Shown: piece after piece, positions 5,044 through 5,074 of the stretch
Numbering within the stretch: the stretch's first letter is position 1
How the letters are laid out: the number at the start of each line of letters is the position of its first letter
IMG/VR virus record: IMGVR_UViG_2579778702_000004
Coordinates: 1-6,563 of that record
Source: a virus
Taxonomy: Duplodnaviria; Heunggongvirae; Uroviricota; Caudoviricetes
Reading direction: 5' to 3' (one strand)
DNA: 6,563 nucleotides
Notes under the pieces: model-generated
Seen by the model: the letters and a program-made list of their open reading frames with translations, nothing else
Told to the model about the DNA's origin: nothing
Database searches by the model: none
Program-made: the position numbers and the translations under genes

Positions 5044-5074
5044 GGCTGGTGGGTGCCCCTAACACCCACCAGCC
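5044..5074. repeat. Perfect 12-bp inverted repeat (7-bp spacer) carrying a Chi octamer on each strand
   Basis: GGCTGGTGGGTG (5044-5055), spacer CCCCTAA, CACCCACCAGCC (5063-5074). The left arm contains 5'-GCTGGTGG-3' on the plus strand (5045-5052); the right arm is its reverse complement, giving Chi on the minus strand (5066-5073). Confidence 0.8.

Follow-up and report, generated by a model that had tools for sequence, protein, structure and literature searches.

A palindrome with Chi on both strands upstream of a prophage methyltransferase gene is probably a helix of a conserved leader RNA

Why does a lambdoid prophage carry a perfect palindrome, with a Chi octamer on each strand, just upstream of a DNA methyltransferase gene? 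The question arises in a 6,563-nt stretch of a Caudoviricetes virus (IMG/VR record IMGVR_UViG_2579778702_000004, positions 1 to 6,563; hereafter the window). A preliminary description of the palindrome, at 5044-5074, had proposed that a dual-orientation Chi pair blunts RecBCD from either end of linear DNA, and had also allowed for an RNA stem-loop in the late transcript. We compared the locus with its relatives. The stem-loop is strongly supported, both by G·U wobbles that exist only on the minus strand and by compensatory double changes in distant relatives. The palindrome very probably forms helix P2 in a conserved, structured leader RNA about 135 nt long, with selection acting on base pairing in the minus-strand RNA and not on two Chi sites.

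The hairpin and its Chi octamers in related loci

On the plus strand, positions 5044-5074 read GGCTGGTGGGTG CCCCTAA CACCCACCAGCC, two 12-nt arms, 100% complementary, on either side of a 7-nt spacer. The exact Chi octamer, GCTGGTGG, is present in two copies, confirming that Chi occurs on both strands of the repeat. One copy (5066-5073) lies on the minus strand, which is the strand of late transcription, and we refer to it as the sense Chi; the other (5045-5052, plus strand), a mirror copy produced by the perfect pairing of the stem, is the antisense Chi. As minus-strand RNA, helix P2 has its 5' arm GGCUGGUGGGUG at 5074-5063, its loop UUAGGGG at 5062-5056 and its 3' arm CACCCACCAGCC at 5055-5044, with a predicted fold energy of −24 to −26 kcal/mol.

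No other perfect 12-bp inverted repeat with a loop of 3-10 nt occurs in the window. Such a repeat appeared in 1 of 400 windows simulated with an order-1 Markov model, and the analytic expectation is about 0.003. The arrangement is thus as unlikely by chance as had been supposed, with the caveat that the two octamers are not independent events, since Chi in one arm of a perfectly paired stem entails Chi on the opposite strand. The window as a whole contains six Chi octamers (four on the minus strand, two on the plus strand), where shuffled sequences predict 0.31.

Related loci were gathered without reference to the hairpin, through the methylase protein and through a conserved stretch of the untranslated region (UTR) downstream of the hairpin; the searches with the UTR stretch covered viral contigs and one genome per species. 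Across these relatives the sense Chi alone predominated and loci with both copies were a minority: among 205 loci, 131 carried the sense Chi only, 61 both copies, 13 neither, and none the antisense Chi only. The corresponding figures were 29, 10, 11 and 0 for the 50 distinct sequence variants, and 30, 3, 10 and 0 for the 43 species-representative genomes. The sense Chi was therefore kept in 192/205 loci and 33/43 species genomes, and the antisense Chi in 61/205 and 3/43. PPyecE_EH1910, the closest phage record (99.5% identical, 201 nt), has the sense Chi only, and so does phage LLS, in which both leader and hairpin are present.

The two arms differ in how they vary. The 5' arm, read on the sense strand, was invariant in 13 phages and nearly so overall, whereas the 3' arm occurred as CACCUGCC, CACUCACC and CACCUGUCAGUC, variants whose transitions replace G-C or U-A pairs by G·U or U·G. 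One natural change, from CACCCACC to CACUCACC, keeps the pairing and removes only the antisense Chi, and this copy was lost through C-to-U or A-to-G changes that preserve G·U pairing. The wobble pairs of the 3' arm exist only in the minus-strand RNA; the other strand would carry C·A mismatches. In 31 of 34 variants, the predicted stability of the sense RNA hairpin also exceeded that of its antisense counterpart. This asymmetry has no need of a Chi-based cause, because every transition in the G/U-rich arm breaks a pair while every transition in the C/A-rich arm keeps one.

We wondered whether the back-to-back Chi pair itself could be selected, as a device that blunts RecBCD from either end of linear DNA. 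Both octamers are perfect in the window, both occur together in more than a quarter of the related loci, and the window and its relatives are strongly enriched in Chi. However, the antisense copy is absent from 70% of related loci, never occurs alone, is missing from the closest record and is lost by changes that preserve pairing. It also lies in the inactive orientation, and under lambda-type packaging only the top-strand orientation is active (PMC12315714). Moreover, homologous hairpins in Chi-rich Enterobacterales prophages contain no Chi at all: within ±5 kb, sense Chi occurs at 0.59 per kb around Chi-less hairpins and at 0.52 per kb around Chi-bearing ones. Phages with Chi-less hairpins thus also accumulate GCTGGTGG yet do not keep it in the hairpin, so the hairpin is independent of Chi, and the palindrome is essentially what the preliminary description had set against its own idea, part of a common element without Chi dependence. 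The comparison appears largely to refute the two-way device, and it leaves scarcely any probability for it.

The sense Chi requires a separate assessment. Chi-rich lambdoid phages without a recombination module of their own depend on host RecBCD (Zheng et al. 2025), and top-strand Chi is the active orientation for RecBCD entering from the right end (Zheng et al. 2025; PMC12315714); the Chi enrichment of these phages is already known from this published work. The minus strand of the window corresponds to the top strand of phage LLS. By homology with the maps of LLS, SfV and mEp460, the minus-strand copy of the palindrome is the active one, in the orientation read by RecBCD arriving from the right (lysis-gene) end, and the plus-strand copy is inactive; the packaging end of this prophage itself lies outside the window. 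Whole relatives contain 16-22 Chi against 1.5-2.4 expected, with a 2-4:1 bias to the late-transcription strand and a concentration in the replication, Q and lysis region, towards the right end. Active and inactive copies number 11 and 6 in PPyecE_EH1910, 12 and 5 in phiP27, 17 and 5 in SfV, and 16 and 4 in mEp460, compared with 4 and 2 in the 6.5 kb of the window. We scored the relatives sharing the locus for at least eight active-orientation Chi, few inactive ones and clustering to the right, and they showed this pattern. The early-left open reading frames (ORFs) of the closest record, several of them unannotated, had no Exo, Bet, RecT, Erf or Gam Pfam domains.

A second conserved non-coding Chi in the active orientation lies at 5383-5390 on the minus strand, 317 nt upstream of the hairpin Chi, between a terminator resembling tR' and a 65-aa ORF. 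It is embedded in the block GTAAACGCGCTGGTGGYGGTGAATAC, which is common to phiP27, SfV, mEp460 and Stx2 phages and is not found in the Klebsiella phage. In whole genomes, this Chi and the hairpin Chi form a constant pair about 315 nt apart. By analogy with the published class, the sense Chi of the hairpin is very likely an ordinary member of the active Chi set, and it probably interacts with RecBCD entering from the right genome end.

Selection could accordingly act in Escherichia-type phages on the sense Chi alone, with the hairpin secondary, or with the 5' arm under a double constraint as RNA helix and as DNA Chi. The wide retention of the sense Chi, its active orientation in a Chi-dense right-hand region, the likewise conserved second site upstream and the closest record's early-left genes without a recognisable Rec module, which fit the class of Zheng et al., all favour such selection. 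Yet in Escherichia-type phages the neighbouring bases (AAUGGGCG and GGGUGUU) are conserved at least as well as the octamer itself. Chi is lost in 11 of the 50 unique variants with the helix kept, most commonly at the sixth base of the octamer, which faces an internal loop of the helix. Some of these losses are compensated, as in GCUGGAGG with ...CCCUGCC, a natural variant (L119) that is Chi-null and retains pairing. Wobble rules alone explain the invariance of the G/U-rich arm, and equally Chi-rich phages have Chi-less hairpins. We therefore regard selection on the sense Chi as the unlikely explanation of the hairpin, though one that keeps some weight.

Covariation of the hairpin within a conserved leader

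Beyond the Escherichia-type phages, P2 is maintained by different sequences. In Lonsdalea, GAUCGGAGAG is paired with CUCUUCCGAUC (core GAUCGG/CCGAUC); the helix reads GACCGG/CCGGUC in Symbiopectobacterium, GACUGG/CCAGUC in Rosenbergiella and GCGGUG/CACCGC in Serratia, and none of the four contains Chi. We built a covariance model (CM), R1, from 106 leaders; it scored 142 bits on the window and found one copy per locus. In the resulting alignment (A4), 93.7% of cells pair, and changes on both sides occurred in 15 pairs compared with 5.6 in shuffles and 4-8 in slid controls; in P2 they affected 8 of 12 pairs. We then added more divergent leaders, fetched via the Lonsdalea-type methylase and scoring 51-110 bits (alignment A6). 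Their hairpins include GGCUACCGGGUG/CACUCCGGUAACC, GGCAGAAGAGUG/CACUACCUCUGCC and GGCGUACAUGAUG/CAUCGUGCACGCC, again without Chi. With these sequences, 9 of the 12 P2 pairs showed both-sided changes, and the covariation score reached 0.324, whereas shuffles gave 0.129 and slid controls no more than 0.137.

The occurrence of Chi can be accommodated within the leader-RNA reading. In the Escherichia/Enterobacteriaceae branch the G/U-rich 5' arm simply happens to read GGCUGGUGGGUG, which contains Chi. Where the 3' arm is fully Watson-Crick complementary, as in the window, the opposite strand shows Chi too, and the antisense copy is a by-product.

The hairpin belongs to a larger conserved structure, the 5' UTR of the methyltransferase gene (4951-5083, minus strand; alignments A2, A3, A4 and A6), which runs from just after a terminator to the AUG. 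The placement given in the preliminary description, between the methyltransferase gene and the upstream terminator, is correct: the terminator hairpin with its U run lies at 5115-5098, and the ATG is at 4950. The leader, about 133 nt in the window, is nearly constant in length across loci, at 134-140 nt. In 14 of 15 comparisons its sequence was better conserved than the coding sequence next to it (74-83% versus 58-82% identity). A methylase of the same family (about 350 aa, with a DPPY motif) lies directly downstream of 43/43 genomic hits and of all phage hits.

Four further helices accompany P2, all on the minus strand. P1, predicted by RNAalifold, joins UGGGC (5075-5079) to GCCCA (5003-5007); its pairing holds in 99.5% but is nearly invariant. 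P3 (5016-5040) pairs UGCU..UG at 5040-5033 with CA..AGCA at 5023-5016, in the general form NGCU..UG/CA..AGCN'. Its closing pair covaries (CG 30, UA 24, AU 18, UG 5), and in distant leaders GCUCAUG/CACAAGC becomes GCCCGU/ACGGGC. P4 is the hairpin CUGCUUU-GCGCA-AAAGCGG (4983-5001), with both-sided changes in 3 of 6 pairs in alignment A6. P5 (4957-4981) pairs AUGAGC at 4981-4976 with GCUUAU at 4962-4957, generally RUGAGC/GCUUAY, and shows both-sided changes in 4 of 6 pairs.

A search of the window against Rfam 15 (E ≤ 1) returned no family for the leader. The sole overlap was P26, which we rejected as an identity for the leader because it was on the wrong strand and scored weakly, at 22.9 bits (gathering score 36; E = 0.22). 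We found no description of the leader in a full-text search for the arm sequences or in the literature on Stx-phage methylases, late promoters and small RNAs (sRNAs).

The same comparisons bear on two explanations of the palindrome that do not involve Chi. A perfect 12-bp dyad with a 7-bp spacer is what a DNA operator for a dimeric helix-turn-helix protein might look like, and the 65-aa ORF upstream of the leader, labelled a TrmB-family regulator in phiP27, would be a candidate C-protein-like partner; it precedes the leader in 39 loci, Rosenbergiella included. However, the half-sites are asymmetric, one arm being fixed and the other drifting by transitions that make sense only as RNA wobble, and distant relatives change both arms complementarily and not towards a common motif. 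In LLS and several genera the hairpin is retained where the small ORF is missing, and the ORF itself has no Pfam match. The palindrome thus displays neither the symmetric half-site conservation nor the obligatory linkage to a regulator typical of C-protein operators, and we consider an operator highly improbable.

The hairpin could also be an intrinsic terminator or attenuator, or a dispersed extragenic palindrome of the repetitive (REP-like) type, for it has a strong GC-rich stem, is intergenic and stands next to another terminator. However, no U/T run follows the stem (AUCUGCUC comes next on the minus strand, GCCCAUUUACC on the plus), and the scan that reported the neighbour at 5115-5098 did not list the hairpin. 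As for a REP element, there is one copy per locus, at a fixed place upstream of the same gene, and no Rfam or repeat-family match. The chance that either describes the hairpin is close to nil. Two readings of the G-rich arm were set aside as well, a G-quadruplex because the GGGG loop is not conserved and a promoter because there was no promoter-like match.

Some database entries carry unusual forms of the locus. Phage phiSTEC1575-Stx2k (L012, 1411-1556) has a shortened leader remnant scoring 27.9 bits, which keeps the terminator, the 5' strand of P1 and the hairpin with four G·U pairs. After GCUUAUG it diverges into an unrelated helix-turn-helix gene, as though mosaic recombination had joined the two within the leader. 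Typical enterobacterial leader-methylase loci were also found on contigs labelled Chryseobacterium, Geobacteraceae metagenome-assembled genome (MAG), Bacillus MAG and Vagococcus (L232, L245, L248 and L249), which are probably contaminated or mis-binned contigs in public assemblies.

Two predicted folds and the methylase start codon

What might such a leader do? A GGAG-type Shine-Dalgarno sequence is absent ahead of the methylase AUG. The near-invariant UGAUC at 4952-4956 (minus strand), at −6 to −2 before the AUG, is a candidate non-canonical ribosome-binding element; it is complementary to GAUCA in the 3' end of 16S ribosomal RNA (rRNA). The loop of P3 contains GGGUCAC (5027-5021, minus strand), or GGAUCAC in relatives, and so resembles the E. 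coli 16S rRNA 3' end, GGAUCAC.

In the minimum-free-energy fold of the window, GGUCAC.AAGC pairs with GCUUA..UGAUC, and AUGGGC (5080-5075) pairs with GCUCAU (5039-5034). This alternative fold excludes P1, P3 and P5 and buries the bases before the AUG; P2 is common to both folds. For 71 of 77 distinct leaders the alternative fold was predicted to be the more stable, with a mean advantage of about 5 kcal/mol. The pairing that hides the ribosome-binding region was possible in 98.5% and 90% of cases in two alignments, and the AUGGGC/GCUCAU pairing in 99.8% and 96.5%. In distant leaders the strand shared by both folds changes from GCUCAU to GCCCGU and keeps both partner sets.

We propose that the leader, which would lie in the late transcript made under Q control, after a read-through intrinsic terminator and before the methylase start codon, controls methylase expression post-transcriptionally, most likely by toggling between two folds. 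In the open fold, P1, P2, P3, P4 and P5 would form and UGAUC before the AUG would be free; in the closed, more stable fold, AUGGGC/GCUCAU and GGUCAC.AAGC/GCUUA..UGAUC would form and the ribosome-binding region would be hidden. With moderate confidence, the leader may be viewed as a translational gate for a dangerous methylase, with P2 as a constant structural module. The switch between folds is a hypothesis drawn from thermodynamics and pairing potential.

A bolder version can be offered only tentatively, as a possibility that we do not expect to hold in full: that the leader represents an undescribed class of riboregulator gating translation of M.EcoGII-type enzymes in lytic growth, that the mimic of the 16S end, GG[A/G]UCAC, pairs with UGAUC, and that P2 doubles as an active Chi in Escherichia-type phages. 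If true, P2 would carry overlapping codes for RNA structure and for recombination.

Several points weigh against the leader-RNA reading. The stems are almost invariant within the Enterobacteriaceae, and the covariation comes mainly from more distant lineages. The aligned sequences are phylogenetically related, and alignments based on a CM lean towards the model. The CM alignment also shifts the upper P2 stem by one column in the class to which the window belongs, leaving about 20 cells scored as 'other' in alignment A4. From single-sequence folds, we judge these cells to be an alignment artefact. In the window/Stx class, whose loop is 7 nt long, CM realignment likewise places P4 out of register and inflates the cells scored as 'not paired'; for this class single-sequence folds were used instead of the CM alignment. 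The place of the leader in the late transcript is deduced from gene order and terminators. In Escherichia-type phages, selection on Chi may be part of the reason why the 5' arm is so strictly conserved. Finally, the helices that form only in the alternative fold show almost no variation and little covariation, and with segments so constant, covariation cannot settle the two-fold model.

Gene context and comparison with known systems

All genes of the window lie on the minus strand and form the late region of a lambdoid prophage. A gene for a DUF968/HNH-like protein (6500-5913) comes first, followed by the Q antiterminator gene (5910-5515). Downstream of Q lies the first late terminator, which is tR'-like (5426-5446); an equivalent terminator is annotated in the SfV record. 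Next come the 65-aa ORF (5102-5299; phrog_331) and a second intrinsic terminator, t2 (5088-5115), which consists of GCCUUCCGCAGUGAAGGC followed by UUUUUUAUUU and stands directly upstream of the leader; in relatives its structure is kept and its stem sequences differ. The 65-aa ORF is a frequent upstream neighbour of the leader and methylase, with 37-100% identity across loci from Escherichia to Rosenbergiella. It is absent in LLS, Lonsdalea, Serratia and others, and is a possible, non-obligatory partner of the terminator-leader-methylase module.

The methyltransferase gene itself (3901-4950) encodes a 349-aa N6_N4 enzyme of the M.EcoGI/M.EcoGII family, with a DPPY motif and a match to Pfam PF01555 (E = 7e-44). 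M.EcoGII methylates adenine in any context, is harmful if constitutive and is not expressed in the lysogen (PMC5778455). The same paper counts the methylase from phage 1720a-02 as closely related (PMC5778455), and that phage shares the leader-methylase locus of the window.

Beyond the methylase gene lies a trio of tRNA genes (Met/Ile-CAT, Arg-TCG and Arg-TCT; 3602-3851) typical of Stx phages, and then a 118-aa ORF (3138-3494; phrog_2873, no Pfam domain) that occupies the stx position of Stx phages. Between this region and an esterase gene, the late operon contains a full-length Rfam match to the STnc100 sRNA family (2715-2905, minus strand; 138 bits, gathering score 47), which is flanked by two back-to-back terminators, at 2686-2707 (plus strand) and 2745-2726 (minus strand). 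The esterase gene (641-2492), nanS-p-like and encoding a 9-O-acetyl-sialate esterase, is split into ORFs for DUF1737+SASA (258 aa) and DUF6645 (365 aa). Compared with the intact 1854-nt gene of PPyecE_EH1910 (93.5% identity), the split reflects two single-base deletions, near 1777 and 1748, which mark either a pseudogene or a sequencing error. A P21-type holin gene is last. The same intergenic region occurs in phiP27, SfV, mEp460, cdtI, LLS, phiNP, Klebsiella phages and many Stx2 phages, and gene order is the same in those relatives (phiP27, SfV, mEp460, LLS, phiNP and Stx2 phages among them).

The attractive notion of a two-way Chi device can be dropped. In its place stands a widely conserved RNA, supported by covariation, ahead of M.EcoGI/GII methylases in several Enterobacterales families, and it is a candidate for RNA family databases. 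The M.EcoGII-type enzyme is a biotechnology tool whose natural control is known only as silence in lysogens, and the leader offers a testable handle on how a phage times a non-specific, host-toxic methylase.

Taken as a whole, the leader RNA seems to be a hitherto undescribed example of a familiar type of element. Leaders that hide a ribosome-binding site, such as riboswitch platforms, RNA thermometers and translational operators, resemble it in their position between terminator and start codon, in covarying helices and in conservation above that of the coding sequence. A further likeness is the pair of mutually exclusive folds, made from segments that hardly vary, with the bases immediately before the AUG paired in one of the two. 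The leader differs from these elements in having no Rfam match and no known ligand, protein or temperature signal, and its switch is proposed from thermodynamics and pairing potential only.

The short RNA from pR' to tR', or StxS-type transcript, is likewise part of a Q-antiterminated late transcript downstream of Q, in which preceding terminators keep the downstream genes silent in lysogens. However, the leader is not a promoter-proximal terminated RNA: another terminator, about 350 nt further on, precedes it, and its association is with the methylase gene and not with Q or pR'.

The C-protein operators of restriction-modification systems share the arrangement of a small putative DNA-binding ORF before a methyltransferase gene with a dyad between them. 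Here, in contrast, the dyad evolves as an RNA helix, the methylase is an orphan, and the ORF is dispensable for conservation of the hairpin.

Closest in genome type are the Chi-rich phages of Zheng et al. 2025. LLS itself carries the leader, and the high Chi density, the top-strand bias and the clustering at the right end, around Q and lysis, are common to both. That work treats Chi as dispersed DNA sites, without mention of hairpins, palindromes or inverted pairs, whereas here the octamer sits in an RNA helix that is conserved independently of Chi, and its inverted copy lies in the inactive orientation.

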